A DNA stretch of 40,105 nt from Macrostomum lignano (taxonomy: Eukaryota). Position numbers and translations under genes: made by a program. Below, piece after piece: positions 7,070-33,480 of this stretch. Below the pieces are notes generated by a model. The model was not told the DNA's origin, did not search any database, and was given only the letters and a program-made list of their open reading frames with translations. The stretch spans positions 1 through 40,105 of the forward strand of contig NIVC01004635.1 in NCBI GenBank assembly GCA_002269645.1, read 5' to 3'. Position 1 is the stretch's first letter. Every line of letters starts with the position of its first letter.

Positions 7070-8273
7070 CCATTGTGTCTCAGTCTCTTGTGACTCAGTC
7101 CATTGTGTCTCAGTCTCTTGTGTCTCAGTTCATTGTGTCTCAGTCTCTTGTGTCTCAGTTCATTGTGTCTCAGTCTCTTGTGTCTCATTCCATTGTGTCT
7201 CAGTCCATTGTGTCTCAGTCTCTTGTGTCTCAGTCCATTGTGTCTCAGTCTCTTGTGTCTCAGTCTCTTGTGTCTCAGTCTCTTGTGTCTCAGTCCATTG
7301 TGTCTCAGTCTCTTGTGTCTCAGTTCATTGTGTCTCAGTCTCTTGTGTCTCAGTCCATTGTGTCTCAGTCTCTTGTGTCTCAGTCCATTGTGTCTCAGTC
7401 CATTGTGTCTGAGTCCATTGTGTCTGAGTCCATTGTGTCTCAGTCTCTTGTGTCTCAGTCTCTTGTGTCTCAGTCTCTTGTGTCTCAGTCCATTGTGTCT
7501 CAGTCTCTTGTGTCTCAGTTCATTGTGTCTCAGTCCATTGTGTCTCAGTCCATTGTGTCTCAGTCCCTTGTGTCTCAGTCCATTGTGTCTCAGTCCATTG
7601 TGTCTTAGTCCATTGTGTCTCAGTCCCTTGTGTCTCAGTCCATTGTGTCTCAGTACTTTGTGTCTCAGTTCATTGTGTCTCAGTCCATTGTGTCTCAGTC
7701 CATTGTGTCTCAGTACTTTGTGTCTCAGTCCATTGTGTCTCAGTACTTTGTGTCTCAGTCCCTTGTGTCTCAGTCTCTTGTGTCTCAGTCTCTTGTGTCT
7801 CAGTCCCTTGTGTCTCAGTACTTTGTGTCTCAGTCCATTGTGTCTCAGTCCATTGTGTCTCAGTCCATTGTGTCTCAGTACTTTGTGTCTCAGTCCATTG
7901 TGTCTCAGTCTCTTGTGTCTCAGTCCCTTGTGTCTCAGTACTTTGTGTCTCAGTCCCTTGTGTCTCAGTACTTTGTGTCTCAGTCCATTGTGTCTCAGTC
8001 CATTGTGTCTCAGTCCATTGTGTCTCAGTACTTTGTGTCTCAGTCCATTGTGTCTCAGTACTTTGTGTCTCAGTCCCTTGTGTCTCAGTACTTTGTGTCT
8101 CAGTCCCTTGTGTCTCAGTACTTTGTGTCTCAGTCCATTGTGTCTCAGTCCATTGTGTCTCAGTCCATTGTGTCTCAGTACTTTGTGTCTCAGTCCATTG
8201 TGTCTCAGTACTTTGTGTCTCAGTCCCTTGTGTCTCAGTACTTTGTGTCTCAGTCCCTTGTGTCTCAGTACTT
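7070..8273. repeat. 15-bp satellite CAGT(CCA/CTC/ACT/CCC/TCA)TTGTGTCT, left part
   Basis: About 80 monomers; ends exactly at the LINE 5' junction. Confidence 0.97.
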
Positions 8274-11200
8274 CAGTACCACGCCCTTGCAGCATCTAGC
8301 AACCTTTCAGGCACCTTTGCCAACAAGGAAGTTGACATCTACCTTATTCAGGAACCGTATACCCGCAAGGGGAAGCCGACCTGCCTGCCGCCAGGCTATC
8401 AGGTTCTGTACCTCTGCGCGAACGACACCCCCAGAGCTATCGCCCTCGTCAAAAACGACCTCCCGGCCACTATTATGCCAATGTTTTGCTCTAAAGACAT
8501 GTGTACTTTCTCAGTCTTTGACTTGACCTTCGTTTCCGCTTACCTGGACATTCAGGAGGACGTCCCTCCCCCCCTCCTGCAGGAGCTGGCGGACTTCTGT
8601 AATCTCCAGGATCGGAAGCTTATCGTTAGCTGCGATGCTAACGCCCACAACACTGCCTGGTCTAGTAGCGATACTAACAGGCGCGGTGACTTACTAATTG
8701 ATTTCATTAACTCCTCCTCGTTACACATTTGCAACAGAGGCAGCAAACCCACATTTATTGTCTCTAATCGGCGTGAGGTTATCGACCTCACTCTCGTCTC
8801 CAACAACGCCCTCAATCAGGTCCACAGCTGGCTGGTTAGGGATGACCTCCCATCGCTTTCCGACCACTCGTACATTCAGTACAGCATCAGCTCCGTCGGA
8901 GCCCGTCATGAGAACCGGGACCGCCTTAATTTGAAAAAGGCCGACTGGACAGGTTTTCGAAGAGACCTGCTAAAACTCCTGACCGAAGCCAACTTACCGG
9001 ACTCCAGCGAGGATCTCCCTGGCATTGAGCATCGGTGCAACTCCCTCGTTGAGATCCTAAACACCGCCATACGCGCTAACGCCCCTAAGCTGTTTTGCAG
9101 GAAGAAATACTCTCCTTGGTGGAGTCAAGAGCTCACTCGCATGAAGAAAAACACCCGCCGACTGCAACGCCTCGCAAACGGCTCGAATACCCCAGAGGAT
9201 TGGGAGAACTACCACTCTGCTCTGAGGATGTACAAAAGTGCTATCCGAAGGGCTAAGAAGACCACCTGGAAAGCCTACTGCGCCGGCCTGGAAGGGCAAC
9301 ACCCCACAGCCCGGCTGGTCAGGACTCTCAGGCACGACACGCTAGCTCAGTGTAACTCCCTTCTGCACCTGGATGGTAACTACACTACCAGTGCCGAAGG
9401 TTCGCTAAATCTTCTTTTCTCCACCTGCTTTCCGCAGGTTGACGAACCGGAGTACGTGGTCGATGACCACAGGCCTTGTGATCACAAGCTTTTCCAGCAG
9501 TGCGCCACCCCCAGCTACTCCAGCTGGCAGCAAATTCTTTTAAACCGTATAAATCGTCTGGCCCTGACAATATCGCCCCCTGTATCCTGCAGGAGGCGCT
9601 AAAGCTGCAAAACTTTGCTGATTCTTTCTCTAAATTGCTTGTTGACTGTTATACCACAGGTTACATTCCCACAATCTGGAGAATGTCCAGAGTCGTGTTC
9701 ATCCCGAAACCTGCTAAGGGTGACTACACCAACGTGAAATCCTTCCGGCCCATCAGCCTCACTTCCTTTTGTGTTAAGCTGATGGAGAGGCTCATCCTGT
9801 GGAGGCTTCGAGAGTGCGACCTGCGCTCCGACCCTGTCAGTAAGTACCAGTACGCCTTCCAGCCTGGGAGGACGACTGAGCATGCTCTCCACGCCATTAC
9901 CTCCAAAATTGAGAGTGCCATCCTTAGCAAACAACTCGCTTGCGGGTTGTTCGTTGACTTCGAAGGAGCATTTGACAATGTCCTCTTCCGCTCCTTCAGA
10001 AATTCTCTTTCCCGCAGGAATGTAAGACACAGCATTGTTCGCTGGATTTATTTTATGATCCGCAAAAGGTTTGTGACATCCACACTTATGGGCGTTACCC
10101 TCACCCGGGCGGTGATGAAAGGCGGCCCGCAAGGTGGCGTGCTAACTCCACTTCTCTGGAATCTCGTCATGGACGAACTTCTAACCGCTGACATTCCCAG
10201 CAGTATCACCAGGGCGGGCTACGCCGATGACGTTGCCGCGGTCGTCAGCGGACCCGACCCCGCCACTCTGCGCAACCTGATGCAGCAATTCGCCGACAAG
10301 GCGGCCGACTGGGCTACACAGCATGGCCTAAAAATCAGCGTCACTAAGACTGTCGCTGTCGTTTTCACCAAGCGCCGTAAGTGGGAGATGAAAAACCTCA
10401 CTGTCTATGGCAGAAACATCCCCTTCAAGAAGGAGGTCAAATACCTCGGTGTGACGCTAACGCATGACCTGCGCTGGACGAAGCACCTTGATAACGTCAT
10501 CGGTCGGGCAAAACGCTGCTTTGCCCAGCTGCGCAGAGCCATCGGGCCGACTTGGGGCCTCTCGCCTAGAACGGTCCGTTGGATTTATACCGGCATCATC
10601 CGGCCCAGTATCACATACGCGAGTCTCATCTGGACTAGCGTGCTGGAGCAGAAGGCCGCCCGTCAGCGGCTGTACCAGCTTCAGGGCAGCATTTGCCGTG
10701 CCATCACAGGTGCGTACCCGTCCACCCCTTACGAGGGGCTGAACACTATCCTTAACCTACCTCCGCTTCACCTATTTATTAGGGCGGAGGCTATGAAGTC
10801 TGCCTCCCGGCTTATCAGAGATAAAACGTTAAATAACGCGCCCTCTGGCTTTATGCCAATGAAAACATTAATCCCGCATATGGACTTTGTCCGCCGCGAC
10901 CTTAACAACATCCACATGGACCTGGGCAATGTGGATAGTCGACCTCCCGCCCTCAACATCAGGAGGGGCTTCAAGACCGCCATCCCTGGCCGAGACAACA
11001 TTCCGCTGGATGTCGGTGTGAACCGGCGCAGCCAGGGCATTCACTGCTTCACCGACGGCTCGCTGTTCAACGGCCGCGCTGGAGCGGGTATTGCCATTTT
11101 CCACGAGGGTAAGATGCTTCTCCAGGAAAGTCTGCACCTCGGTGAGAACACCTCAGTTTTCCAAGCTGAAATTTGCGCCATTGAGCAGTGTGCCCAGCAA

Positions 11201-11941
11201 CTGTTTCAGGCGAACATTAATAATTTTGACATTAATTTCTACACTGATAGCCAAGCTGCTATTAAGGCCTTAACCACTGAGAATATCTCCGCTGCTACAG
11301 TATCTCAATGCCACCGCAGTGTGCAATCTCTCTCAGTCCTTAACAGGATTAGAATTATCTGGACACCTGGTCACAGCAACATCCTGGGCAACGAGCTCGC
11401 GGACTCTCTCGCCAAGGAGGGCAGCAACCCAGACGGCAACCACCGTCTGATGAGGCTACCCACCCCCAGGTCGCAAGTCACCCGCCATATCAACAGGTGG
11501 CTCCATCAGCAGCACCAGCTCCACTGGAACAGCTGCACCGAGTACAGGCAGAGCCGCTCTGCCATGCCTAACCTGAACAGGAAAGTCTCTGATTATCTGA
11601 TTTCGCTTAACAGAACCGACCTCAGGGAGATGTGCATGGTCCTAACCGGCCACGGATTCTTCCAGAGACATATATCGTTGCAAACCGGTTGCCCTCCCAC
11701 CTGTCCCTTCTGTGGCATAGGAGAGGAGACCGCGGAGCATCACGTCACCTTCTGCCCTTACTTCAACAAGGCGCGGCACAAATACCTCGGCCACCCCCAG
11801 CGGATGGACGAGCTGACCACCGCGGACAATATCCGAGACCTCCGCGCCTTCGTCCGGGACTCCGGCCGGATGAGGGTCGCCGATGCCTCCACTGCGGACC
11901 TGCCGACTACTGGCGGGGACTGGGCGCACCCCCAAGGCTAA
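8274..11941 (+). pseudogene. LINE ORF2 (EN-RT-RNase H-zinc knuckle), 5'-truncated, one frameshift at the C5 run 9508-9512
   Basis: EN: CDANAH, LSDHSY. RT: [22 protein letters not shown]. RNase H: [29 protein letters not shown]. Zinc knuckle: CPFC...HHVTFC. One extra C joins ORFs 8475-9602 and 9500-11941. Confidence 0.9.
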
Positions 11942-12033
11942 TCCTTGTGCTCTTTTACCTTGGGGTTGCGATAGGGGCCTCGCGGCCTATTCGCGGCGCC
12001 TGCGCCCCCCGTCAGTAGTAAGTAAGTAGTAAG
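8274..12033 (+). mobile_element. 5'-truncated non-LTR retrotransposon (I-group, Loa/Lian- or R1-like: APE endonuclease, RT, RNase H, CCHC) inserted in the satellite
   Basis: Starts at the first APE motif ([12 protein letters not shown]...DIYLIQEPY). GC-rich 3' UTR with hairpin potential and an AGTAGTAAGTAAGTAGTAAG tail to 12033. The satellite resumes at 12034. Confidence 0.92.
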
Positions 12034-15000
12034 TTGTGTCTCAGTCCATTGTGTCTCAGTCCATTGTGTCTCAGTCCATTGTGTCTCAGTACTTTGTGTC
12101 TCAGTCCATTGTGTCTCAGTACTTTGTGTCTCAGTCCCTTGTGTCTCAGTACTTTGTGTCTCAGTCCCTTGTGTCTCAGTACTTTGTGTCTCAGTCCATT
12201 GTGTCTCAGTCCATTGTGTCTCAGTCCATTGTGTCTCAGTACTTTGTGTCTCAGTCCATTGTGTCTCAGTACTTTGTGTCTCAGTCCCTTGTGTCTCAGT
12301 ACTTTGTGTCTCAGTCCCTTGTGTCTCAGTACTTTGTGTCTCAGTCCCTTGTATCTCAGTACTTTGTGTCTCAGTCTCTTGTGTCTCAGTCCATTGTGTC
12401 TCAGTCTCTTGTGTCTCAGTTCATTGTGTCTCAGTCTCTTGTGTCTCAGTCCATTGTGTCTCAGTCCATTGTGTCTCAGTCTCTTGTGTCTCAGTCCATT
12501 GTGTCTCAGTTCATTGTGTCTCAGTCTCTTGTGTCTCAGTCCATTGTGTCTCAGTCCATTGTGTCTCAGTCTCTTGTGTCTCAGTCCATTGTGTCTCAGT
12601 CTCTTGTGTCTCAGTCTCTTGTGTCTCAGTCTCTTGTGTCTCAGTCCATTGTGTCTCAGTCTCTTGTGTCTCAGTTCATTGTGTCTCAGTCTCTTGTGTC
12701 TCAGTCCATTGTGTCTCAGTCTCTTGTGTCTCAGTCCATTGTGTCTCAGTCCATTGTGTCTGAGTCCATTGTGTCTGAGTCCATTGTGTCTCAGTCTCTT
12801 GTGTCTCAGTCTCTTGTGTCTCAGTCTCTTGTGTCTCAGTCCATTGTGTCTCAGTCTCTTGTGTCTCAGTTCATTGTGTCTCAGTCCATTGTGTCTCAGT
12901 CCATTGTGTCTCAGTCCATTGTGTCTCAGTCCCTTGTGTCTCAGTCCATTGTGTCTCAGTCCATTGTGTCTCAGTCCCTTGTGTCTCAGTCCATTGTGTC
13001 TCAGTACTTTGTGTCTCAGTTCATTGTGTCTCAGTCCATTGTGTCTCAGTCCATTGTGTCTCAGTACTTTGTGTCTCAGTCCATTGTGTCTCAGTACTTT
13101 GTGTCTCAGTCCCTTGTGTCTCAGTACTTTGTGTCTCAGTCCATTGTGTCTCAGTCCATTGTGTCTCAGTCCATTGTGTCTCAGTACTTTGTGTCTCAGT
13201 CCATTGTGTCTCAGTACTTTGTGTCTCAGTCCCTTGTGTCTCAGTACTTTGTGTCTCAGTCCCTTGTGTCTCAGTACTTTGTGTCTCAGTCCCTTGTATC
13301 TCAGTACTTTGTGTCTCAGTACTTTGTGTCTCACTCCCTTGTGTCTCAGTTCATTGTGTCTCAGTCCATTGTGTCTCAGTACTTTGTGTCTCACTCCCTT
13401 GTGTCTCAGTACTTTGTGTCTCACTCCCTTGTGTCTCAGTACTTTGTGTCTCAGTCCATTGTGTCTCAGTACTTTGTGTCTCAGTCTCTTGTGTCTCAGT
13501 TCATTTTGTCTCAGTCTCTTGTGTCTCAGTCCATTGTGTCTCAGTCTCTTGTGTCTCAGTTCATTGTGTCTCAGTCTCTTGTGTCTCAGTCCATTGTGTC
13601 TCAGTCCATTGTGTCTCAGTCTCTTGTGTCTCAGTCCATTGTGTCTCAGTTCATTGTGTCTCAGTCTCTTGTGTCTCAGTCCATTGTGTCTCAGTCCATT
13701 GTGTCTCAGTCTCTTGTGTCTCAGTCCATTGTGTCTCAGTCTCTTGTGTCTCAGTCTCTTGTGTCTCAGTCTCTTGTGTCTCAGTCCATTGTGTCTCAGT
13801 CTCTTGTGTCTCAGTTCATTGTGTCTCAGTCTCTTGTGTCTCAGTCCATTGTGTCTCAGTCTCTTGTGTCTCAGTCCATTGTGTCTCAGTACTTTGTGTC
13901 TCACTCCATTGTGTCTCAGTACTTTGTGTCTCACTCCCTTGTGTCTCAGTACTTTGTGTCTCAGTACTTTGTGTCTCAGTACTTTGTGTCTCACTCCCTT
14001 GTGTCTCAGTTCATTGTGTCTCAGTCTCTTGTGTCTCAGTCCATTGTGTCTCAGTCCATTGTGTCTGAGTCCATTGTGTCTGAGTCCATTGTGTCTCAGT
14101 CTCTTGTGTCTCAGTCTCTTGTGTCTCAGTCTCTTGTGTCTCAGTCCATTGTGTCTCAGTCTCTTGTGTCTCAGTTCATTGTGTCTCAGTCCATTGTGTC
14201 TCAGTCCATTGTGTCTCAGTCCATTGTGTCTCAGTCCCTTGTGTCTCAGTCCATTGTGTCTCAGTCCATTGTGTCTCAGTCCCTTGTGTCTCAGTCCATT
14301 GTGTCTCAGTACTTTGTGTCTCAGTTCATTGTGTCTCAGTCCATTGTGTCTCAGTCCATTGTGTCTCAGTACTTTGTGTCTCAGTCCATTGTGTCTCAGT
14401 ACTTTGTGTCTCAGTCCCTTGTGTCTCAGTACTTTGTGTCTCAGTCCATTGTGTCTCAGTCCATTGTGTCTCAGTCCATTGTGTCTCAGTACTTTGTGTC
14501 TCAGTCCATTGTGTCTCAGTACTTTGTGTCTCAGTCCCTTGTGTCTCAGTACTTTGTGTCTCAGTCCCTTGTGTCTCAGTACTTTGTGTCTCAGTCCCTT
14601 GTATCTCAGTACTTTGTGTCTCAGTACTTTGTGTCTCACTCCCTTGTGTCTCAGTTCATTGTGTCTCAGTCCATTGTGTCTCAGTACTTTGTGTCTCACT
14701 CCCTTGTGTCTCAGTACTTTGTGTCTCACTCCCTTGTGTCTCAGTACTTTGTGTCTCAGTCCATTGTGTCTCAGTACTTTGTGTCTCAGTCTCTTGTGTC
14801 TCAGTTCATTTTGTCTCAGTCTCTTGTGTCTCAGTCCATTGTGTCTCAGTCTCTTGTGTCTCAGTTCATTGTGTCTCAGTCTCTTGTGTCTCAGTCCATT
14901 GTGTCTCAGTCCATTGTGTCTCAGTCTCTTGTGTCTCAGTCCATTGTGTCTCAGTTCATTGTGTCTCAGTCTCTTGTGTCTCAGTCCATTGTGTCTCAGT

Positions 15001-16510
15001 ACTTTGTGTCTCAGTCTCTTGTGTCTCAGTCCATTGTGTCTCAGTCTCTTGTGTCTCAGTCTCTTGTGTCTCAGTCTCTTGTGTCTCAGTCCATTGTGTC
15101 TCAGTCTCTTGTGTCTCAGTTCATTGTGTCTCAGTCTCTTGTGTCTCAGTCCATTGTGTCTCAGTCTCTTGTGTCTCAGTCCATTGTGTCTCAGTCCATT
15201 GTGTCTGAGTCCATTGTGTCTGAGTCCATTGTGTCTCAGTCTCTTGTGTCTCAGTCTCTTGTGTCTCAGTCTCTTGTGTCTCAGTCCATTGTGTCTCAGT
15301 CTCTTGTGTCTCAGTTCATTGTGTCTCAGTCCATTGTGTCTCAGTCCATTGTGTCTCAGTCCATTGTGTCTCAGTCCCTTGTGTCTCAGTCCATTGTGTC
15401 TCAGTCCATTGTGTCTCAGTCCCTTGTGTCTCAGTCCATTGTGTCTCAGTACTTTGTGTCTCAGTTCATTGTGTCTCAGTCCATTGTGTCTCAGTCCATT
15501 GTGTCTCAGTACTTTGTGTCTCAGTCCATTGTGTCTCAGTACTTTGTGTCTCAGTCCCTTGTGTCTCAGTACTTTGTGTCTCAGTCCATTGTGTCTCAGT
15601 CCATTGTGTCTCAGTCCATTGTGTCTCAGTACTTTGTGTCTCAGTCCATTGTGTCTCAGTACTTTGTGTCTCAGTCCCTTGTGTCTCAGTACTTTGTGTC
15701 TCAGTCCCTTGTGTCTCAGTACTTTGTGTCTCAGTCCCTTGTATCTCAGTACTTTGTGTCTCAGTACTTTGTGTCTCACTCCCTTGTGTCTCAGTTCATT
15801 GTGTCTCAGTCCATTGTGTCTCAGTACTTTGTGTCTCACTCCCTTGTGTCTCAGTACTTTGTGTCTCACTCCCTTGTGTCTCAGTACTTTGTGTCTCAGT
15901 CCATTGTGTCTCAGTACTTTGTGTCTCAGTCTCTTGTGTCTCAGTTCATTTTGTCTCAGTCTCTTGTGTCTCAGTCCATTGTGTCTCAGTCTCTTGTGTC
16001 TCAGTCCATTGTGTCTCAGTCTCTTGTGTCTCAGTTCATTGTGTCTCAGTCTCTTGTGTCTCAGTCTCTTGTGTCTCAGTCCATTGTGTCTCAGTCCATT
16101 GTGTCTCAGTCCATTGTGTCTCAGTCTCTTGTGTCTCAGTTCATTGTGTCTCAGTCTCTTGTGTCTCAGTCCATTGTGTCTCAGTCTCTTGTGTCTCAGT
16201 CCATTGTGTCTCAGTCCATTGTGTCTGAGTCCATTGTGTCTCAGTCCATTGTGTCTCAGTCCATTGTGTCTCAGTCCATTGTGTCTCAGTCCATTGTGTC
16301 TCAGTCCATTGTGTCTCAGTCCATTGTGTCTCAGTACTTTGTGTCTCACTCCATTGTGTCTCAGTACTTTGTGTCTCACTCCCTTGTGTCTCAGTACTTT
16401 GTGTCTCAGTCCATTGTATCTCAGTCCATTGTGTCTCAGTACTTTGTGTCTCACTCCCTTGTGTCTCAGTACTTTGTGTCTCACTCCCTTGTGTCTCAGT
16501 CCATTGTGTC
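12034..16510. repeat. 15-bp satellite, right part (~298 monomers) with higher-order block repeats
   Basis: Same monomer as 7070-8273; rare variants recur at 945, 1305 and 1140 bp spacing. Confidence 0.97.
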
Positions 16511-17295
16511 GGAGTACACAGTGTTTCAGTCCTTTCGCTGGACTAATTTCTCGGAAAGTGCTGTCCGACTTGCGCTGATCAGAGCAGCATGCAGCGTCCC
16601 GATCCTGCTTGAGGCCATTCAGCAGGAACTGAAGCTCGGCAAGGACTTTATCCGCTTTTGTTTCTGAGGCTCTTTCGCTTGTGAACAAGCAGCCAGATGA
16701 AGTGAAACAGCAGGCGCCATTAGCCAAGTTCCGCCCTCGCCATCCCAGCAATGCCCGACCCTGCTCCCCTGCTCAAGTTTTACTCTCTTCCTGCTCACAC
16801 TTGGTGCCGCAGAAGCCCAAAAACCGATGAGTCCACGTGCAAAAGGCTAAAAGTACATTTACGAGTTTTACTCTGTAGAACGAATAAATTTAGATTTTGT
16901 TTATCTGGTTTAATTGCCAGATCAAATATCCGTGAAGGCTCCAGCCTTTATCCAGATGCCTAATGATTGAACCGACACGTTTTTTTCTACTCCAAATCTG
17001 GTGTTCTTTGCGCTCACAATTAAGTGGGGACTGACACAGATGCGACTAAATTGAAAGCCCGTCCTTGAGAAGCAGCGCTTGCGGCGTCACGCCCTCTCGA
17101 AGGGAGAGGTCACGTGACAGTTCGGAGCTTCAGAACTTTGCCTAATGAACTTCACCACTACCCCAGCTCACGTGACCAGCCATGAACTGAGTCGCTTTAT
17201 TAGAGCTAAGCTATCGGTAGAATTCCGGAAACCACTGACCCCCGGTTCATCATTATTTCAGAAAGGTCAAACTGAAGTCGTTGTGGTTGGAAACT

Positions 17296-24248: not shown

Positions 24249-25241
24249 ATGATGCTTCAGCTCTTGTTGCTGCTCATTGTTGGACTCCAACTTGCTGAAT
24301 TAGCCACTCCCGAGCGAACCTATTGGACCAGCCGCGACGGTCTCTCTGACTATGAGGTTGCGAGCTCGCGCTCCATGCGCTCGGAAGTCGAATGCCTCAA
24401 TGTGGCAAGCAGCGAATCCGCTGTGCAGCTGGTGGCGTTCAACGCCAGCTCCGGCCTGTGCGCTCACTTCAGGTGTCGCCTGGACCTGAGCCACTGCAGG
24501 AAGTGCCGGGATGTGAACAAAGGAGATCATCAAGTGTGGGTGAGTCCTGTGTCAGCAGCATTCGCATTAACATAGTCTGAATTGGCACTTTAGCAAAAAA
24601 CTTTTTACATTGCAGACAGCCGGCAGTGACTGCTGGACCACCGTGCAGCACAGGGTGTCCGGCTCAGTGGACTTTTACCGCAACTGGACTCAGTACCAGA
24701 GCGAGTTCGGCGAGGGACCCGATGGAAACTACTGGATCGGTGGGGTTGAAAGCTTTTTAATATTCTGTAATTAAATTTGGATAATTGGAACTATGTTCAA
24801 CTTTTCAACTTCCCAGGCCTGAACTCTCTCCATACTCTGACGTCATCTGGCGCACGGAAGCTGAGGATCCTGATGAAGGACTGGAACGACTCGATTAGCT
24901 GGGCTGAGTACTCCAGCTTCTCAGTGGGTCCCGAGTCGGACAACTACCGGCTGAGCGTGTCCGGCTTCTCCGGCAGCGCCGGCATCGGCGACTCACTGTC
25001 CTACAGCAGCGGCCGGCAGTTCAGCACGAAAGACGTTGATCACGATGCCCACCTGGAAAGCAACTGTGCCAAGGTATATTCCGGTGCCTGGTGGTTTTTC
25101 GCCTGCCACAGTACGCACCCCAATGGAGTTTACAAAAACTTCTCTGAGGCTATCGGTGGTATGTACGCACAGGGCACCATCTGGAACTTAAAATATGGGT
25201 ACTACTACTCGCTGAAGGAGTTCGAGATGATGGTACTGTGA
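24249..25241 (+). CDS. Secreted fibrinogen-related-domain (FReD) protein with an N-terminal Cys-rich PAN/apple-like region; join(24249-24539, 24616-24739, 24817-25241), 279 aa
   Basis: Signal peptide [16 protein letters not shown]. FReD motifs [41 protein letters not shown]. Two GT-AG introns (76 and 77 nt) keep the frame. AATAAA at 25307. Confidence 0.9.
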
Positions 25242-25391: not shown

Positions 25392-26062
25392 ACTACTAAG
25401 CAACGGCAGATGGCTCGATTTTGCGAAGGTCCGTCGGGCTGATGTCGGCCTCTAGCACCGCGGCAAGGTGCTCCCTCGGGGTGTACCACCTCCCCCGGGG
25501 TGTACCTCCAGCGGGGTGGGTGTCCAGCGAGTGTACCTCCAGCGGGGTGGGCCTCCCGCGAGTGTACATCCGGCCGGCTGGGCGTCCAGCGAGTGTACCT
25601 TCAGCGCATGGGCCTCCCTCGGGGTGTACATCCGGCGGGGGGATTCCCGCCCCTCCCACCAATGTCGTGTGCACGCGGTTAGTGTAGGAAGGAAACCCCC
25701 GATGCTGACGCAGCCCTGTACACTGAGCAACCGGCCCCCCATGCGGGGGACAGAGAGCAGCCCTGTAGCTGGGGACAGAGAGCAGCCCCTGTAGCAGGAG
25801 GGGTAGTGCGTGGAGAGCCGCCATCCCCCTGTAGCAGGGGACAGATAACAGGCGACCCCTGTAGCAGTATGAGGTGGGGTACAAAGAGACACGGGGTGCT
25901 GGGACAGAGAGTGCGTGGAGGCACCCTGCGCTGCCCTGGCATGTCGCAGCACGCGGCGTGGACAGAGAGGGAGTGTGAGTCACACGGAGGGACAGAGAGC
26001 TTCCCCAGGCCGGGGTGGTAGAGGGACAGACCGGCGGTGAGTGATAGAGAGCTCCCCCCAGG
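25392..26062. repeat. Left terminal inverted repeat (~671 bp)
   Basis: Reverse complement of 35278-35921 apart from nt ~10-18, a ~25-bp extra subrepeat and a few substitutions. Confidence 0.95.
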
Positions 26063-26153
26063 GCAGTAGAGGACTTGAAAAGAAAAAACACGTATTTTAG
26101 TTGTTTCAGGTTCAGGCCATCCGGCAAACAGAGCAAAGCTCTCCAACAGTGTT

Positions 26154-26783
26154 TTATTTAGCATAAACTACGGGGTAGCGCCCCAACACATTAGCATAGT
26201 AGCGAACAGATGCGTTCTGCAAGCAATTAACAATCAAGTAGGAGTAGGGCTCCCTAGTGGCGTCTTCGTACATTTGAACAAAACTTTTTGGGTTAGCGGG
26301 GACAAGCTGCTTTGCAATATGGGCGACTGTACTAACGTCCCGTACATTGCGGAACAATACAAGGTAGTTTGCGTTAAGGGATTGAGTGCGGTGCTCCTTG
26401 CCCTTGGCAAACAGGTTTTGTACAAGGTACCAAAGCCGGAATCCCACATGGCTGACTTTGCGAGTGAAAAATGCGGTAAAAGCAGCGTTTTTTTCCATGG
26501 CTTGCATTTGATCATCGACAACGAGTAGAATATTCGGAGCGGGAACATAGGTTTCAGGGTTAAATGTAGACGAGCGAAAATTGACAGGGTACGGTAATTC
26601 AAACAGTTCCGGGTCTGGATAGTGCCCAAACCAATCAACGCGAACAGGCTTAGGGTCCTGAAAAAACTCGTTTCGCAGCAATTCTTTAACAAGAGTTGTT
26701 TTTCCGCTCTGGTTAACACCAGCAAAAATCGCCGAAGTATTTGGAGCAAACTTTAGAGCGTCAGGATCAATTGTTTGGTACAT
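26154..26783 (-). CDS. A32/FtsK-like genome-packaging ATPase
   Basis: Walker A GVNQSGKTT, Walker B LLVVDD, and the Polinton-type YLVQNLF...RTQSLNANYLVLFRNVRD motif. First ATG at 26783. Confidence 0.93.
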   Translation of the reverse strand: MYQTIDPDALKFAPNTSAIFAGVNQSGKTTLVKELLRNEFFQDPKPVRVDWFGHYPDPELFELPYPVNFRSSTFNPETYVPAPNILLVVDDQMQAMEKNAAFTAFFTRKVSHVGFRLWYLVQNLFAKGKEHRTQSLNANYLVLFRNVRDVSTVAHIAKQLVPANPKSFVQMYEDATREPYSYLIVNCLQNASVRYYANVLGRYPVVYAK

Positions 26784-26817
26784 TTTCAGGGCGAGTTGAC
26801 ACTCCAAATATTAAAAA

Positions 26818-27255
26818 CTATTTTATTTGTAGAACATGTTTTCGAACCATCAAATCATTTTCAAGCAGATTGGTAGAGTAACATTCCCTTAAAATCTTTT
26901 CAATCGACAACCCCTCTAAAAAGTGCTTTTCGGCCACAAAAATCACATGCGGCCCACACGCTACACTTAGAGGGTGTTGAACAGGGTGGCGATTCATAGC
27001 AACAGGTGAATGTACATGCTTCGAGATCCAAGCCGAGAGCAATTCCGGCACGGGTTCAATACACAGAGGGTCAAAAAATGTCACACTCTTATCATCGTGT
27101 AGGCAAATCAGTCCCCAGTGGGTGCCTGGCAGATTACCCGTGTCAAAATTAATTACATATGCAGCAGGGTAAACAGGTGCAGGAATTCTGTCGAGAGGGC
27201 AAACGTGCACTTCCACAGGTAGTTTTAAACACTCCAAAATTTCCAACGTGTTCAT
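26818..27255 (-). CDS. Adenain-like cysteine maturation protease
   Basis: INFD...PGTHW, FFDPL and QHPLSVACG give the His/Asp/Gln/Cys catalytic set. ATGA overlap with the MCP stop. Confidence 0.92.
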   Translation of the reverse strand: MNTLEILECLKLPVEVHVCPLDRIPAPVYPAAYVINFDTGNLPGTHWGLICLHDDKSVTFFDPLCIEPVPELLSAWISKHVHSPVAMNRHPVQHPLSVACGPHVIFVAEKHFLEGLSIEKILRECYSTNLLENDLMVRKHVLQIK

Positions 27256-28535
27256 ACGTAGTCCAGAATGGGCTGGCGGCCTCTAGTGATTTGCACCGCG
27301 TTGTCAAAGTAACCAAACACCAAAACGTTAATCCCGGCAGGTAGGGCTGCAGAAAACTTTATCTGTAGGGTCAGATTCCCTCTCTCGCGAGGCATGCTAT
27401 GTCCACCCAGTTCCATATCGGGCATTAGATTCCACGCAAATAAGCAGTAACCGGCGCGATAATCCGAATATGACAGGTCAATGTCCAAATCGCGATTCAT
27501 TTTCCCTAGGCTCTTAAACAGCATGGCGTATTCGCGAGCATAGTTTTGGGCAGCGAACCTTGGAGTGAATGGTTGACCGCACAGACTGACACCGTCCTTG
27601 TACAGGGCCACACTGTCAGCCCCAAATGGCTCGAAATTGAACGGATTATGGGTAGCCACCCCGTTATATGCGGCACTATTTACCATCCCCATAATGACAA
27701 GTTTAGGCTTCTGCTCCGGGAAAATATTATTGATTGACACGTCGCGAACTCCTACAGCGACAGAGGTGTTGTGTACAACGAGGCGCTCGATGGGGTAGAC
27801 TGCATTCTGAGTTGCCAGCTGTTCTTCAATCTCCAAGGCCAGTTGGGGGTTAGCCTTTACCCGACGAACGTGTAATTTTGCACTTTGAAGAACCAACTTT
27901 GCATCAACCCCTTCGGCGTGATTCTCTACAACGAATCCCGAATTTTGCAGAGTGAGCGTAACCACCATATCAGTGTAGGGTAGCAGCATACGATCGTTGG
28001 TGACAAAAAAGTCGAGACTAAGAGGGCCATACAGGTGAAATGTTCGAGAACCGGCAGCCATCGCCTTGCGAGTTACAAAGCCAGGATTTCCAACCGCAGC
28101 CATTTGACCCCCAGCGTCTTTAGCGTAGCCCATCATCCGCAGTTGGTTAGACTTTGAATCAGACCCATAACTCAAGCATGTACGAATGTACGCCTTGTAG
28201 GCATGGTTGTTGTTGCTAGACTCGATATGTGTACCATTTATGGAAAGAGACACGTTTTTGAACATGGTCTCCAAGAGGTAATTGATTGGCGCCACGTTTG
28301 AATCCGCCGCCAAATCGGCTCCATTAGCTCTTTTAATACAACCTTTAATCTCGAGATCAATGTCATTAAGATCGACAAACGTCTCGCCGCCCACAATTCT
28401 AAACTCAACCACACTCGCATTTTCGACGCTGGCAACCGGGTGGATTTCTTCAGTAGTTGAACCTACAGCGGCAATCTGGTGGGCTCGAGGGGCAAAGAGC
28501 TCAAACTCGGACTTTGTACACAGACACTCGGACAT
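27252..28535 (-). CDS. Major capsid protein (double jelly-roll, Maverick/adintovirus type)
   Basis: 427 aa. CTKSEFELF N-terminus, PINYLLETMFKNV, HAYKAYIRTCLSYG, NPFNFEPF, GYCLFAWNL; position next to the protease and ATPase. Confidence 0.9.
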   Translation of the reverse strand: MSECLCTKSEFELFAPRAHQIAAVGSTTEEIHPVASVENASVVEFRIVGGETFVDLNDIDLEIKGCIKRANGADLAADSNVAPINYLLETMFKNVSLSINGTHIESSNNNHAYKAYIRTCLSYGSDSKSNQLRMMGYAKDAGGQMAAVGNPGFVTRKAMAAGSRTFHLYGPLSLDFFVTNDRMLLPYTDMVVTLTLQNSGFVVENHAEGVDAKLVLQSAKLHVRRVKANPQLALEIEEQLATQNAVYPIERLVVHNTSVAVGVRDVSINNIFPEQKPKLVIMGMVNSAAYNGVATHNPFNFEPFGADSVALYKDGVSLCGQPFTPRFAAQNYAREYAMLFKSLGKMNRDLDIDLSYSDYRAGYCLFAWNLMPDMELGGHSMPRERGNLTLQIKFSAALPAGINVLVFGYFDNAVQITRGRQPILDYV

Positions 28536-28564
28536 GTTTAGTAGACAGACTCGATTCGGCGAAT

Positions 28565-28909
28565 CTAATTGAAGCGGGGCTTTTTATTTATAGTGCTGAA
28601 AATGTCTGAATTGAGACGCTTCGGAGCCTTTTTTCTTCTTCGTCCGCTACCCCTTTGGGTAACAGTGTCTTTAAAGGCGTCCTTGGCAGCCTGAACAGAA
28701 TTGCGCAGGACAGACTCCTTCAAATTGCCTCCTTGCTCGAGGCTATCGTTAACAGTAGTTGCTAGGGCTCTAGTACCATGACGGAGAACGTTTTTACCAA
28801 AACTCTTTAGAATTGGCAGCGCGAAGCGGGCAATGCTTCCAAACAAACCGTTGCCCCTCTGGGCGCCCGCGAAAACAGGCAAAGCTCCACCAATCAGAAT
28901 AGAAGGCAT
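28565..28909 (-). CDS. Basic core protein with protease-type cleavage motifs
   Basis: QRGNGLFGSIARFALPILK amphipathic motif typical of Maverick small core proteins; QRGSG followed by the basic tail RRRKKAPKR. Confidence 0.7.
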   Translation of the reverse strand: MPSILIGGALPVFAGAQRGNGLFGSIARFALPILKSFGKNVLRHGTRALATTVNDSLEQGGNLKESVLRNSVQAAKDAFKDTVTQRGSGRRRKKAPKRLNSDIFSTINKKPRFN

Positions 28910-28952
28910 GATTAAGCACTAGGATATAGTTTACTGAGGCTGTGCTGTTTAT

Positions 28953-30092
28953 TTATAGCTTCTTTTCGCGGATGTTAACGCTCAAGACGGTCTTGCCCCT
29001 CATTACTTTTGTCATATCCCTGCCCATATCATCGTTAATTTGTACTTCAATAGTTTTGAATGGGTGCTTAACCAGCGGTAGATATGCCGGATTGACAAAC
29101 TCGTAGTACTCGCGACCGCCCTGAACTTTGGGATCCATCGGTATAGCTCCCAACAGAGGAACTTTAACGTCTCCTACAATAACAGAATCGACTATGCTCG
29201 AATAGATGTACATTGTTTGTATTCCACCGGTTAATTCCATTGATGTGGCTGCCCCAAAGTCCGATATACCGAAAAATGGGGTTGTATAATCATGCTCTGG
29301 GAAACCAAGCATGCCGGTCAAGCGCCCCAGCCCAAACATGTAATCCATCGAGCCAATGTAATAACACCTATTCGTAACTTCGCTGTATCCGAAAAAGTCC
29401 GTTCTAGGTGCTGGAGCCGCTATGAGATCTTTGATCCGTTTCCAAATTAAATTGTTGAGTTCCTCCACCATTCTTTTAGGTGTACTATAGTATCCTCCCT
29501 GCATAAAAAATATTTGATCAGACGCTGCGCTAGTAACTTGTCTTATTATTGGAGCATGGTCCATTGACTGCACAGTCGGTTCCTCAACAACTGCGGTGAT
29601 GGAGGCTGCACACCCCGCGTGTAATACGAGTTCAGTAGGTAGATCCTCATTAGACTCGAAGCCGGCGACTAGTTTAAACACCTTGGGTAGGGTATCCGGG
29701 AATTTGATGCCGACGGTGGATTTTGAAGTATTCACAATCATAAAGGCGGTTGGGGATGTTCTTAAAAAGACAATTTTCTTATTATCCCCTTCAACGTATC
29801 GGATACCGTTTAGAAAGCCGGAAATACATTCTTCAGGGGTTTTCAGACCCGCTGCGAGACAAAGGTTTGCAAACGACGAAGCCGTCAAGAGGCCCTCCTG
29901 TTCGCGAATGGTGATCGGTATAGATTTTTTGAAAGATTCAAATTCTTTGGTAAAGTAGATCCGTTCGAGGCAAACCTCATGATTCGGAAAGTGGAGAGTG
30001 TCCGGTAAATTAATAAAATAATGAGCCGGATTATTTTCGGGATAGTGCTCGGGGCACGCATTGCTAGGCAGAAAGAGATGCATGGTAGCCAT
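28953..30092 (-). CDS. Minor capsid (penton) protein with a large central insertion
   Basis: N-terminal LFLPSNAC...YPENNPAHYFINLP and C-terminal MYIYSSIVDSVIVGDVKVPLL...Y.PL...F.TIEVQI.DD.G motifs of Polinton mCP. Confidence 0.85.
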   Translation of the reverse strand: MATMHLFLPSNACPEHYPENNPAHYFINLPDTLHFPNHEVCLERIYFTKEFESFKKSIPITIREQEGLLTASSFANLCLAAGLKTPEECISGFLNGIRYVEGDNKKIVFLRTSPTAFMIVNTSKSTVGIKFPDTLPKVFKLVAGFESNEDLPTELVLHAGCAASITAVVEEPTVQSMDHAPIIRQVTSAASDQIFFMQGGYYSTPKRMVEELNNLIWKRIKDLIAAPAPRTDFFGYSEVTNRCYYIGSMDYMFGLGRLTGMLGFPEHDYTTPFFGISDFGAATSMELTGGIQTMYIYSSIVDSVIVGDVKVPLLGAIPMDPKVQGGREYYEFVNPAYLPLVKHPFKTIEVQINDDMGRDMTKVMRGKTVLSVNIREKKL

Positions 30093-30095
30093 GCA

Positions 30096-31174
30096 TTAGT
30101 TATTATTACGTTGACGTATATTTATAACTTCATTTACAGGTACAAATGAATTAAAAGTGTCGGGATAACCGCGCCAGCTAACGTAATGGTGCGCAACACC
30201 ATTTATTAACACGTTTCTACGCAAAACTTTATTGATTACAAAACGCTCGGGTCGGGTAGATTTGGACAGTTCATTGTAGTAAAACCGTCCCTCAATCACT
30301 TCACCAGACAAATCAGAAATACGATAAAAATGTGGGGGTCCAGGACAAACTTTGGATATAATGTACACCTCCTCACTATACATGTCGTACGCCTCCTTGT
30401 CGAATGCCCGCGAGATTTCGAAATTCTCACAAAATCCCCCTTTTTATATACGGGGTCGTCTTTTTGCTGATCCGGGTAGAGCTTTTCCCACACACGCTTC
30501 TGATTGTGGAACCCTACACTTGACGGTTTCATCTCAATAGTAGAATGCGTCGTGTTGTTGTAATTACCTACCAAATTGGGTAAGTAGTCAACCCAACGCC
30601 ACGTGTTGTTGTGCTCAAAGTAGCGAGCCAGACGCTTTCGAAGAGTTCTAATCAGCCTCTCGGCCATGTTTGCCTTGTACACAGAGTTGGTGCTGTACAT
30701 TTTAACATTATTGTCTTTTAGTATGCGGCGCATTCGCTGATTATAAAACTCGGTACCCCGATCCACGTGCAGGTAAAGGGGGCGGGCAGGGAAATCATTC
30801 GCCAACATTGACTCAAACGCTGCGGGGGTATCACTCTTTAGTTTAATTGCCCTACAAAAAGCCTGCTTACTAAGCACATCAATAACAACTAGTATATATT
30901 TATGTCCGTCATTCCAACGTTTGTATCGCGACATGTCCATCAAATCGGCTTGTAGAGTTTCCATGAATCCTCCCGACATTACTTTTCCCGTTTTAAATGT
31001 CCTGTTGACTCTCCGGTGACGGGTGTAACTCGGTTGGGTTTCTAGCCATTCCCTGGTTTGGCGTCTTGTCAGGTTTGGCGCCAGACGTTTGGCCTCCTGA
31101 TAGACACGGGCAGCATTTGAAAAAGCGGCGGCTCCTTGTTCGTAAACTCGACGAAGAGCGGTTAGAGCCCTCAT
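30096..31174 (-). CDS. Retroviral-like (rve) integrase with C-terminal chromodomain; split by a 1-nt deletion at the C3 run 30407-30409
   Basis: QADLMDM, VVIDVLSK, HVDRGTEF and AERLIRTLR supply the DDE triad. The downstream frame gives YSEEVY...EGRFYYNEL...YVSWRGYPDTFNSFV. One extra G gives KSRGAFDKEAYDMYSEE. Confidence 0.92.
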
Positions 31175-31286
31175 TGACAACAAGTGTGGATGCACAGCAT
31201 GAATAGTTGCACGTAATGTCGGCTGGGGAGTTGTCTACACAAAGCTTTGACGCGGCGGCTGCTGCGCCCATGACCGCCGGGCGCGG

Positions 31287-31922
31287 TTATGTATGGATTA
31301 GGGTTCTATTTATAAAGAGTATCGTATTTTCTTCCGGGGGTCTTAGTTGGTAATCGTGATATTTACCCACCCGGCCTTGATCCACAAGTTTGGGCATAGC
31401 ATTTACACCTTTGTTGCGCGTGGTCGTTAAATCGCGGGTGTCTGTCGCAATTGTGTGCTCATATTCATCGCGGTAATCGTCGGTACCAACCATATGGTCA
31501 ACCTTCTTTTCCTCCACAGGGAGCTGTTTCCGACCGAGCATAGACATTGGTATACGGGCCTTGTCTAGCAGAGCCCAGAAAGCGGTCGAATATTTCGGGT
31601 GATTATTAGTGTTGGTGGTGACGGCTTGTAGAAGATCAAAAACGTTGCTGCCACCCCAAGTTTCACCATCAAAAACGACTTCCCACGATTGGTTGTAATT
31701 TAGGCTGGGGTGCTTTTCTGTTAGTATATTCCATATACGTTGTTGCCTATCAGAAAATAGCTGCTTTGTCGTCTTTTGGGGTTTTACTTTAGCCAATTGG
31801 GTCTGTAGCTTTGCATTGTACTCTACAAGTTTTTCGTACTCCGATTTTGGGGCAATTTCTCGCGGAGTACCCTGTCTAAGCTGATTGAATTCCTCCTCGG
31901 GGACCACAACGTACTTGTCCAT
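31287..31922 (-). CDS. Conserved Maverick protein of unknown function
   Basis: MDKYVVVPEEEF start and a W.VVFDG...GSNVFDLL...FWALL...IP core, as recalled from Maverick conserved ORFs. Confidence 0.65.
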   Translation of the reverse strand: MDKYVVVPEEEFNQLRQGTPREIAPKSEYEKLVEYNAKLQTQLAKVKPQKTTKQLFSDRQQRIWNILTEKHPSLNYNQSWEVVFDGETWGGSNVFDLLQAVTTNTNNHPKYSTAFWALLDKARIPMSMLGRKQLPVEEKKVDHMVGTDDYRDEYEHTIATDTRDLTTTRNKGVNAMPKLVDQGRVGKYHDYQLRPPEENTILFINRTLIHT

Positions 31923-31924
31923 TT

Positions 31925-32314
31925 TCAACGTCGTTGTCCTAGCAGACCACCAAACAGTCCAGTGATTAACGGAGCAGCAATCTTGGCGAGAATTGGTAGG
32001 AATCCTCCAACTTGAGGGTCCGATAGTATCATATTCTTCTTCCTATTTATAGACAGTTTTTTGTCGGCCATGTCATGCAGGGCTTCTCTATAACGTTTCA
32101 ACCTTGCAAACTGTCTAGGGGATAGATCGATATTGCCCTTGAGTACATTGTGGCTTAACTCGCACAGACACTGCATCAACTCATTATCGGCTCCCCTAAT
32201 AATGGCCCTCCTTCGATGTGGTCGCGCGTCACCGAGCTCCTCTAGCTCGCGACGGCAAGAACAAAGACGAGAAATTCCGTTTGTCATTATTAAGGTGGTA
32301 AGCATTGCGTGCAT
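31925..32314 (-). CDS. Conserved Maverick small protein with a GGFLP amphipathic C-terminus (adenovirus pX-like, membrane-active candidate)
   Basis: LCELSHNVLKGNIDLS...RKKNMIL...QVGGFLPILAKIAAPLITGLFGG. Confidence 0.75.
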   Translation of the reverse strand: MHAMLTTLIMTNGISRLCSCRRELEELGDARPHRRRAIIRGADNELMQCLCELSHNVLKGNIDLSPRQFARLKRYREALHDMADKKLSINRKKNMILSDPQVGGFLPILAKIAAPLITGLFGGLLGQRR

Positions 32315-32352
32315 ACATGTGCATATTTTGTTTATTTATAAGCAAAGCATAA

Positions 32353-32871
32353 TTAGAGTTGCAGAATAGCAGTCACGTGGTCGTACATTTTACACAGTTC
32401 GTCATAGTTTCGTATTCCTAGGAACACTAACCGACCATTCTTTCCGCACAGCAGGCACTTGGCCTTGCGGAATGGGGACTTTATTACAAGCCCATTGAAT
32501 ACCTCACTCTCCCACTCAACCCAGCGCGAGCTCGAGTTGGCAAGGCGGAAAAAGTTTGGCTTAACATTAACTTCTGCACGATAAGTACCGGTAGTGATAA
32601 CAACAGAGTTTGGTTTACATTGAGCAAAAAGACGCAGCACATCGTTGGTTGATTGGCAACCAAAAACAATGGCAGATAATGAACGTTTGAAAAAGTTTAT
32701 TGTACACTTTCCGATCCTCAGGTTGTACAATGCCCGGGGTCTATGAAACGTTCTAGCGCGCGCCCAGTCCAAGTTCGGTAGGTGGTTCCACCTTGCGCAA
32801 AACACCCTGTTTACGCACACGACGTTCTGCAAGCGGTTTTTTCGGTTGCTTTTGTTTCCGCTCAGCTCCAC
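32353..32871 (-). CDS. TATA-binding-protein (TBP)-like protein; no in-frame ATG
   Basis: Two-repeat layout. RLQNVVCVN resembles TBP QLQNIVSTVN. WESEVFNGLVIK...NGRLVFLG...ELCKMYDHVTAIL resembles YEPELFPGLIYR...SGKVVLTG...EIYEAFENIYPIL. Manual alignment only. Confidence 0.7.
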   Translation of the reverse strand: MELSGNKSNRKNRLQNVVCVNRVFCARWNHLPNLDWARARTFHRPRALYNLRIGKCTINFFKRSLSAIVFGCQSTNDVLRLFAQCKPNSVVITTGTYRAEVNVKPNFFRLANSSSRWVEWESEVFNGLVIKSPFRKAKCLLCGKNGRLVFLGIRNYDELCKMYDHVTAILQL

Positions 32872-33432
32872 CAGCTCCGCGCTTGCGTCCTACCTTGATT
32901 TTTAACGGTGGAATCCAGTAGCAGCGGTCAAACGCCTGCTTGGGAGCTTCTATGAATTGCAGTTGTTGAATTTTGGTACCGCGGTTAGAACCGAGTCGTG
33001 AATCACCGCCGTGTCTAGGGCGAACAGTACTCTATAGTAGCCCGTCTTGTTCTTGTAGTCGGTGCACAACTTGCCGCTCTTGTCGTACATTTTAAAGTCG
33101 TGAGCCAATCCGAATGCAGCGCTGTCGCAGCCAAAAGTGGGGTTGTACCCCAATAGCGCCATTCCTTGGATAGAGAGCTGGTGACACACGGAATTGAACG
33201 CTTCTGGTATGCAGCTCTCCAAGTGCTTTTGGGAAAGAATGATGAATTCGCGGCCTTCATTGTCGGTTCTCACACCCTTGACAATCAGTACGGGCGTCGC
33301 ATTGGCAAGATAGAGAGGGCCCTGTTCGTCGTACTCAATGTCGTACGTCTCGGTTCCGTTGTAGCTTGGACCTCTCGACTTGAGAGAGAATAGGTCGATC
33401 CTAACACTATTGTAGTCTTGAACGGTATCCAT
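32753..33432 (-). CDS. Putative ssDNA-binding (OB-fold-like) protein; likely 1-nt deletion at the T4 run 32971-32974 (corrected length 226 aa)
   Basis: The ORF from ATG 33432 stops at 32950. One extra A continues it as VPKIQQLQFIEAPKQAFDRCYWIPPLKIK plus a basic tail to 32753. The SSB assignment is a weak pattern match. Confidence 0.4.
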
Positions 33433-33480
33433 GTTGCTGCTGCTGTTGCTGAGAGTGGGTCTCACACCCTGAGCGCCTCC

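Follow-up and report, generated by a model that had tools for sequence, protein, structure and literature searches.

[quoted passage not shown] The gene is real and under selection. We favour, with somewhat better than even confidence and from the arrangement of the sequence, a reading in which it would act as a spliced activator of the late genes of the element. The question addressed is how a Maverick times its genes when it has neither an RNA polymerase nor a giant-virus helper.

A TBP-derived frame and the element that carries it

The minus-strand open reading frame at 32353-32871 comprises 172 codons and is stop-free from position 32889, and its first ATG is found only at residue 167; hence 32871 does not represent a gene start. 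On searching the genome with this frame, 91 of the 93 scored candidates matched and fell into two subfamilies, A, to which the present copy belongs, and B, which is ~ 77% identical to A. The same 178-codon frame is open in the best 20 genome matches, which are near-identical copies, in agreement with the conservation among copies expected in the original prediction. For one A/B pair the TBP frame gave a dN of 0.14 and a dS of 1.96 (dN/dS ~ 0.07), a contrast that is absent from the shifted and reverse frames of the same pair. Furthermore, codons 1-33 of this exon (pN 0.12, pS 0.80) show the same constraint as its remainder and are therefore translated, although no ATG precedes them.

In the present copy, Pfam TBP (PF00352) matched residues 101-171 with an E-value of 8.2e-5 and 22.8 bits for a cut-off of 22.9, in line with the likeness of the C-terminal repeat to TBP repeat 2 previously noticed by eye. 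Among the relatives, P0002 scored 24.6 bits, above the cut-off, and a B copy gave no match to this profile. TBP chains made up 18 of the 20 matches when PDB sequences were searched with the frame. Direct profile comparison with cellular TBP gave 63% over 60 columns only; the present TBP matched the TBP of Maverick family C at 94.9% over 125 columns, and the latter matched cellular TBP at 97.1% over 161 columns. In a tree of 25 rows, which carries a long-branch warning, A/B joins C at 98/96, and on these long branches the present TBP groups neither with the host TBP nor with the host TRF2-like gene. The host TBP, the TRF2-like gene and TFIIB were each seen at three loci (L031-L036, L057, L078), with the TBP core in one exon. 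A clade of TBP-like proteins of 163-167 aa without the first strand was also observed (P0004, P0015, P0017, P0018, P0020).

An AlphaFold2 model, for which a 5-row family alignment served as input, reached a pLDDT of 75.6 and a pTM of 0.64, the five models ranging from 75.6 to 39.6. Foldseek against the PDB returned 44 matches at E<=0.001, all listed ones being TBP, with a best value of 1.7e-7, and the next fold after TBP stood at E 0.038. Since the Foldseek alignment spans ~ 175 columns, both TBP lobes match, and this part of the structural prediction stood. The saddle geometry is unconfirmed, however, because the lobes of the model are mis-oriented relative to solved TBPs (rmsd 8.5-10, TM 0.35-0.42). 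In a wide structural search TBP was found at Z 6.9 (rmsd 8.5, 146 aligned) compared to Z 5.8 for an unrelated fold, and in BFVD the model also matched giant-virus TBPs (E 2e-6 to 9e-4). The proposal that an endogenous Maverick-type virus lacking an RNA polymerase encodes a diverged homologue of TBP is supported.

Apart from the L5.1 Phe and two C-lobe glutamates, the TBP positions compared below presumably have the roles that we assign to them. Compared with the host TBP, the N-lobe sheet Phe (EVF) and the C-lobe stirrup Phe (NFF) are retained, whereas the N-lobe stirrup Phe went with the shortening of its loop, and Cys stands in place of the C-lobe sheet Phe (LIF to LLC); this alignment agrees with the original prediction on EVF, NFF, LLC and the shortened repeat 1, the loss of the fourth Phe being additional. 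Two of the four intercalating Phe are thus kept, for which reason the protein was filed as TBP-derived and not as a canonical TBP. On the DNA face, the C-lobe Asn and both Thr are replaced as well and, given these changes and the two lost Phe, DNA binding may be lost or changed. In the model, N-lobe helix 2 is reduced to ~ 7 residues. The C-lobe stirrup E-x-E-x-F, which holds the TFIIB-contact glutamates, is invariant in 5 of 5 aligned rows. The available sections of PMC7221094 describe two C-lobe glutamates that contact TFIIB, a conserved L5.1 Phe, which in our reading falls on the sheet Phe, and the loss from viral TBPs of the N-lobe surface that host regulators use.

The features of the element are listed in Table 1. 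Its capsid/ATPase/protease module was assigned by likeness to the complete Mavericks of this genome. The minor capsid label also leans on Maverick anatomy as we take it to be, and the 129-aa ORF and the 114-aa basic protein are presumably cupiennin-like and core-like, respectively. No DNA or RNA polymerase ORF was found in the present element, nor a TFIIB-like gene by Pfam. The Fic gene had no match in the B copies checked, and the 185-aa ORF gave weak leads only in the ESM Atlas. Among 40 scored matches of 225 candidates, 15 of 16 pairs of terminal inverted repeats (TIRs) span 10.4-10.7 kb; a B copy measures 9.8 kb and has the same gene order without pPolB and without Fic. The one TIR pair outside 10.4-10.7 kb bounds a 13.9-kb A copy, which was considered as a pPolB carrier and rejected, its extra length being an insertion in the minor capsid gene.

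Table 1. Features of the element, with positions in the window and strand
Feature	Position	Strand	Remarks
Whole element, 10,530 bp	25392..35921		ends ACTACT...AGTAGT; 6-bp target duplication TACGCA; no pPolB
Left TIR	25392..26057		outer 27 nt from modular pool common to pPolB-only elements
Packaging ATPase	26154..26783	-	weak P-loop matches; 31-42% identical to Maverick ATPases
Adenain-like cysteine protease	26818..27255	-	Pfam Peptidase_C48 E 0.061
Major capsid protein	27252..28535	-	no Pfam match; ~ 30% identity to the same gene of complete Mavericks
114-aa basic protein, presumably core-like	28565..28909	-	
Seven TATAAATA boxes	28585..34427	-	starts 34427, 32340, 32051, 31314, 30126, 28957, 28592
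Minor capsid protein	28953..30092	-	label from position
rve integrase + chromodomain	30096..31174	-	Pfam rve E 1.2e-9, Chromo E 0.054
211-aa conserved Maverick ORF	31287..31922	-	
129-aa conserved Maverick ORF	31925..32314	-	amphipathic C-terminus; tblastn matches in other families
TBP-like exon	32353..32826	-	157 codons; two TBP lobes, N-lobe shortened
Candidate phase-0 intron, 67 nt	32827..32893	-	donor AAG/GTAGG, acceptor TTGCAG/ (slash, exon boundary)
Upstream exon, SSB-like	32894..33432	-	180 codons; weak OB-fold match; frame broken near 32970 here
TATATAAG box, early-type	33480..33487	-	55 nt before SSB-like ATG
185-aa ORF	33481..34038	-	conserved in A and B
117-aa ORF	34035..34388	-	PC4-like by eye only; no Pfam match
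Fic-domain gene	34423..35202	-	Pfam Fic E 6.6e-14; intact HPFxDGNGRxxR; first gene of subfamily A
Right TIR	35281..35921		outer 27 nt identical to one end of pPolB-only element L110

The integrase frame is broken near 30410 in the present copy. Near 30410, 31370, 32970 and 33500, all four sequencing runs compared differ from the present copy at the frame breaks, and many of the breaks in this copy may be assembly errors at short base runs. To either side of the element, at 24249-25241 and 36651-37130 (both on the plus strand), a host gene bearing a fibrinogen-like exon, recognised by eye, is seen to be interrupted by it, and a Bel/Pao gag-like ORF, also by eye, comes after the element. At 8475-11941 (plus strand), ORFs like those of a non-LTR retrotransposon, with endonuclease, reverse transcriptase and RNase H by eye, are inserted in a long 15-nt tandem array that runs from roughly 6950 to 16700.

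Candidate splicing to the upstream SSB-like exon

The donor and the acceptor of the candidate intron are present in 24 of 24 subfamily-A loci, with a spacing of 67 nt in 23 and 66 nt in one, and in 22 of 25 subfamily-B loci, with a spacing of 195-206 nt; the acceptor match is missing in the other three (L070, L075, L076). The upstream exon is free of stops in 20 of 24 A loci, the present copy being among the four broken ones, at a position near 32970 where, as given above, it stands against all four runs. In the outside relatives, protein conservation of the upstream ORF ends at the donor, and in 6 of 6 the residue after K-V is R or C, so that intron position +5 must be G, with an implied spacer of 64-187 nt. 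The acceptor of A and B has a poor pyrimidine tract. In four other pPolB-bearing Maverick families (C), TBP frames without ATG stand directly after a pyrimidine tract and CAG, and the donors in their upstream ORFs, all in phase 0, read CTC/GTAAGT, CTG/GTGAGC, CTT/GTAAGC and CTT/GTGAGT, with intron lengths of 619, 259, 270 and 396 nt, respectively.

The original prediction had taken the N-terminal LQN for a kept protein motif, which does not hold. It reads xQS in the relative P0016, and in the P0008 lineage its first residue would be F, S or Y. The constant part, where DNA is available, is a CAG that represents a candidate splice acceptor, and the 'LQ' reads as this conserved candidate 3' splice site. 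At 46 of 46 positions, the P0007 tail and the beginning of P0016 are compatible with a single DNA read in frames 0 and +1 and, if they are one DNA, the 'Met' of P0016 cannot be ATG. P0002 and P0008 are probably neighbours. No relatives with DNA context were found in the viral contigs or metagenomes scanned, and the single scan match (L105) was dismissed as the reverse strand of an unrelated gene.

Taken together, the conserved sites make it very probable that the TBP frame is spliced to the upstream exon and would thus probably be a second exon. Retention of the candidate intron would give the upstream protein a basic tail. Contigs from four of 24 listed runs, none recorded as RNA and all of uncertain RNA or DNA origin, are evenly covered and have no junction at this intron, and a full-length SSB-TBP fusion was absent among 5 matches of 197-629 aa.

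The upstream ORF of A is regarded as SSB-like with moderate confidence, on a model with a pLDDT of only 43.5 whose top three matches were ASFV CP312R, Enc34 SSB and T7 gp2.5; these matches reached Z 4.4 (rmsd 5.8, 135 aligned), 3.4 and 3.2. CP312R is taken by us to be an SSB. Pfam, PHROGs and PDB sequence searches gave the ORF no name, the ESM Atlas held no usable match, and profile comparison of the A upstream ORF with those of the C families gave no match (0.5%). A PL-x-P-x-G pattern, seen by eye only, is common to the upstream ORFs of both spliced TBP lineages, and the C-type upstream ORF (L082:655-1833; L096; L102; L103) contains a further candidate intron in its first half.

A TBP gene was found in every complete, capsid-bearing pPolB family examined in this genome, which answers the search for homologues in other Polintons. 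The original prediction did not count TBP among the standard Maverick genes; it is common in the Mavericks of this genome and is listed for MELD viruses in figure legends of Starrett et al. 2021 (PMC8502044; 10.1101/697771). In lineage F the TBP has its own ATG and overlaps the tail of an ORF that is exonuclease-like by eye. F-type Mavericks (L037:7281-8400; L039; L041; L043) account for well over 100 TBP matches, with TBP convergent with pPolB. In C-type elements a deoxynucleoside kinase lies between TBP and pPolB (L102:5293-6078; L082:3022-3621; L103:5602-6300; L104:1440-2250); the L102 kinase matches Pfam dNK at E 4.1e-21, and in L104 the kinase is in frame with the TBP exon. Two longer TBP frames, L045 (391 codons) and L049 (297 codons), were set aside, being unlike their sibling copies and looking like frame slips. 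In one more Maverick family, whose pPolB and capsid are of another type (L089, L090, L093, L094), the examined stretches gave no TBP match.

Promoter boxes, proposed mode of action and alternatives

In the element TATAWAWR occurs 10 times on the coding strand and 0 times on the opposite strand, compared to a mean of 1.3 and a maximum of 7 in 500 shuffles. Six of the seven TATAAATA boxes stand 26-57 nt upstream of an ATG, and the stretch directly before the TBP exon is without a box. The early-type TATATAAG box is found also in subfamily B and in two other families. TATAAATA often overlaps a stop codon or AATAAA and is itself, we assume, a good host TATA box.

The structural cassettes of A and B contain 6 and 6 copies of TATAAATA, three C-family cassettes contain 4, 3 and 5 copies of TATAAG[CT]A, and three F-copy cassettes contain 6 copies each of [CT]TTAAGAA. 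In this one genome, which the comparison covers, three TBP lineages thus pair with three boxes over 8 cassettes, at 3-6 copies each versus shuffle means of 0.06-0.42, with motifs chosen after viewing the same data and F393 alone left out of discovery; off-diagonal counts are 0 or 1, and all shuffle means are <0.6. For about half of the cassette boxes an ATG follows at a distance of 25-60 nt. Canonical boxes of the C and F elements, TATATAAG or TATAAAAG, are found mainly outside the cassette, where they precede TBP-bearing genes, PC4 and a few others. Hence TBP genes sit behind ordinary TATA boxes and capsid genes behind the box of their own lineage, a layout from which an early-to-late switch by the viral TBP is likely. 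Boxes and TBPs of the three lineages could co-vary through descent alone. On balance the box pattern inclines us, with moderate assurance, to regard the viral TBP as a putative activator of the late boxes of the element.

In the proposed mechanism, host TBP and Pol II would begin an early transcript at the TATATAAG box. Unspliced, this transcript would give the SSB-like protein with its basic tail; spliced at the phase-0 intron, as the conserved sites suggest, it would give an SSB-like domain fused to a TBP-fold domain. The viral TBP would keep the stirrup that contacts TFIIB and have lost the N-lobe surfaces for host regulators, and by binding the repeated TATAAATA it would most likely bring TFIIB and Pol II of the host to the genes for capsid, integrase and core protein. 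Judging from gene content and shared ends, the present element would represent the structural half and provide capsid, packaging ATPase and integrase as well as SSB and TBP, and pPolB would come from another element, 9-10 kb long, whose ends match.

The same residues could also describe a TFIIB sink, a dominant-negative mimic that does not bind DNA and titrates host TFIIB or lowers transcription of the host while host TBP reads TATAAATA: the DNA face has degenerated, yet the E-x-E stirrup does not vary, and TATAAATA fits the host consensus. The structural genes of the other two lineages, however, stand behind TATAAG[CT]A and [CT]TTAAGAA, with canonical boxes at 0 or 1 per cassette, and such non-canonical boxes with canonical ones nearly absent point to an element-encoded reader. 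Given the invariant stirrup and the co-variation of the boxes with the TBP lineage, the mimic is less likely, and we consider it improbable overall. Joining the TBP exon to an SSB-like domain could couple transcription to replication, or the TBP fold could bind ssDNA or termini rather than promoters, and a Phe-deficient TBP of Giardia is reported to prefer ssDNA in the part of PMC12209930 available. Against such a role, which appears distinctly unlikely, stand the retained TFIIB stirrup and the third lineage, where the TBP is free, with its own ATG, behind the exonuclease-like gene; this role would be compatible with the spliced activator. Translation might further enter the TBP frame on an unspliced transcript, through a UUG start or by programmed frameshifting, given that TTG precedes the Gln codon in A, in B and probably in the P0007/P0016 lineage, that A and 6 of 6 outside relatives (P0009/P0010 being one cluster) have a frame offset of +1, and that one of the 24 A copies (L021) reads through in frame. 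But neither TTG nor ATG is possible at this site in the P0008 lineage, the offset in the 22 B loci is -1 in 13, +1 in 8 and 0 in one, the other families show all three values, and no TATA box precedes the TBP frame; a route without splicing is therefore very unlikely. We retain the spliced activator, in keeping with the redirection of host Pol II suggested in the original prediction, as the preferred reading, and its TBP and named boxes (TATAAATA, TATAAGCA, CTTAAGAA, TATATAAG) make binding, reporter and start-site assays possible, the three TBP/box pairs forming a natural series for TBP specificity change.

Elements carrying only pPolB and relation to known systems

In one pPolB element of 9.0 kb with ACTACT-type ends, the gene content is limited to pPolB and an ORF like PC4. 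At 20 further loci of that pPolB type (from 119 matches), 0 of 20 matched the capsid, ATPase, integrase, protease, SSB and TBP queries. The outer 27 nt vary in blocks among 24 A ends, chosen by likeness to the present copy, and 13 ends of pPolB family 1, and in three cases the entire terminal 27-mer of one type recurs unchanged in the other. pPolB family 2, ~ 62% identical to family 1, ends with ACTACGTA, as B does; 6 of 6 copies are closed with matching 6-bp flanks, without structural matches, and span 9.5-10.8 kb, with one of 18.4 kb. Since pPolB-only elements have target duplications without an integrase, the integrase must come in trans. In the TIRs (25392-25420 and 35893-35921 in the window; L126-L145), the outer 27 nt are composed of interchangeable blocks, and a single copy may have unlike left and right ends, as the present one does, which suggests that ends are swapped during replication.

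Complementary genes and shared ends suggest a two-part Maverick, and two co-diverged pairs of complementary elements would be the simplest reading. The evidence on partners is confined to a single assembly, in which frame breaks at homopolymers are numerous, and within it we hold a working partnership with a pPolB element to be quite probable. As a separate question, the two element types may not be partners at all, each being a defective Maverick derivative mobilised by a complete helper. Non-autonomous derivatives are common among transposons and, with only 91 of 974 pPolB candidates scored, a complete family with ACTACT ends could have escaped notice. Those complete C and F elements for which ends were read are, however, AGTAGT...ACTACT, A and B both lack pPolB although they stand at saturated dS, and gene content is complementary with ends shared pair by pair; independent derivatives are therefore rather unlikely. 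The widest reading, in which the element is one segment of a bipartite Maverick with module-swapping, co-diverged pairs, and in which animal Mavericks at large run an early-to-late cascade through a spliced viral TBP that annotation blind to introns overlooks and whose specificity changed jointly with that of its box at least three times in one genome, is tentative and falls slightly short of an even chance. If the two-part reading is true, 'defective' Mavericks without pPolB or capsid may be working halves, and the counting and classification of such elements would change.

Compared with cellular TBP/TRF (PF00352), the present protein shares the whole-length two-lobed fold, the C-lobe E-x-E-x-F and one Phe per lobe, but it is ~ 16-20% identical, its N-lobe stirrup and helix 2 are shortened, and it differs by its DNA-face losses and by the predicted SSB-like fusion. 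With Mavericks, Polintons and adintoviruses, as described in the sections of PMC8502044 available, the element has in common the TIRs, the 6-bp duplication and the rve integrase, ATPase, protease and capsid genes; it differs by the absence of pPolB, a reversed end motif, the predicted spliced TBP exon and the complementary pPolB-only elements. KSHV ORF24 and the other TBP mimics of beta- and gamma-herpesviruses (PMC12529657, in part) likewise bring host Pol II to late promoters by a TBP-like protein without a viral RNA polymerase, whereas the present protein is small and keeps the TFIIB stirrup, and hence would be a functional analogue and not a member. Giant-virus TBPs are similar in their diverged N-lobe regulator surface; unlike the present element, where no TFIIB-like gene was found, several of these viruses carry their own TFIIB, and their adapter sites are diverged (PMC7221094, excerpts). 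Bidnaviruses resemble the two-part layout by a segmented genome with matching termini and pPolB on one segment (10.1101/697771, in part), but they are ssDNA viruses with parvovirus-derived capsids (PMC11161782, in part), whereas here both parts are integrated dsDNA with Maverick genes.

A Polinton-like TBP is already known, and the splicing and the two-part layout were not found in print. For Polintons and TBP only Starrett 2021 proved relevant, and the openly accessible text covered by the searches, on Macrostomum as well, contained no report of a Maverick in two parts, of a Maverick TBP made by splicing or of boxes particular to a lineage. The term 'TBP' is absent from PMC11131425, PMC10748475, PMC11161782, PMC12220804, PMC10120064, 10.64898/2026.10.13.758929 and 10.64898/2026.06.19.733378 and has no match in one supplementary file of PMC8502044; 'bipartite' in PMC12220804 refers to networks, not genomes. 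In the accessible text of PMC10120064, a large survey, endogenous viruses are stated to be without introns and a prokaryotic gene caller was used, and TBP exons without ATG would thus be missed. The two pPolB TIR families were observed at 9-10 kb without capsid or integrase (L091:3635 to L092:3133, L106-L125, L146-L151), often with a PC4-like ORF, and their pPolB looks interrupted by short introns near the 3' end.
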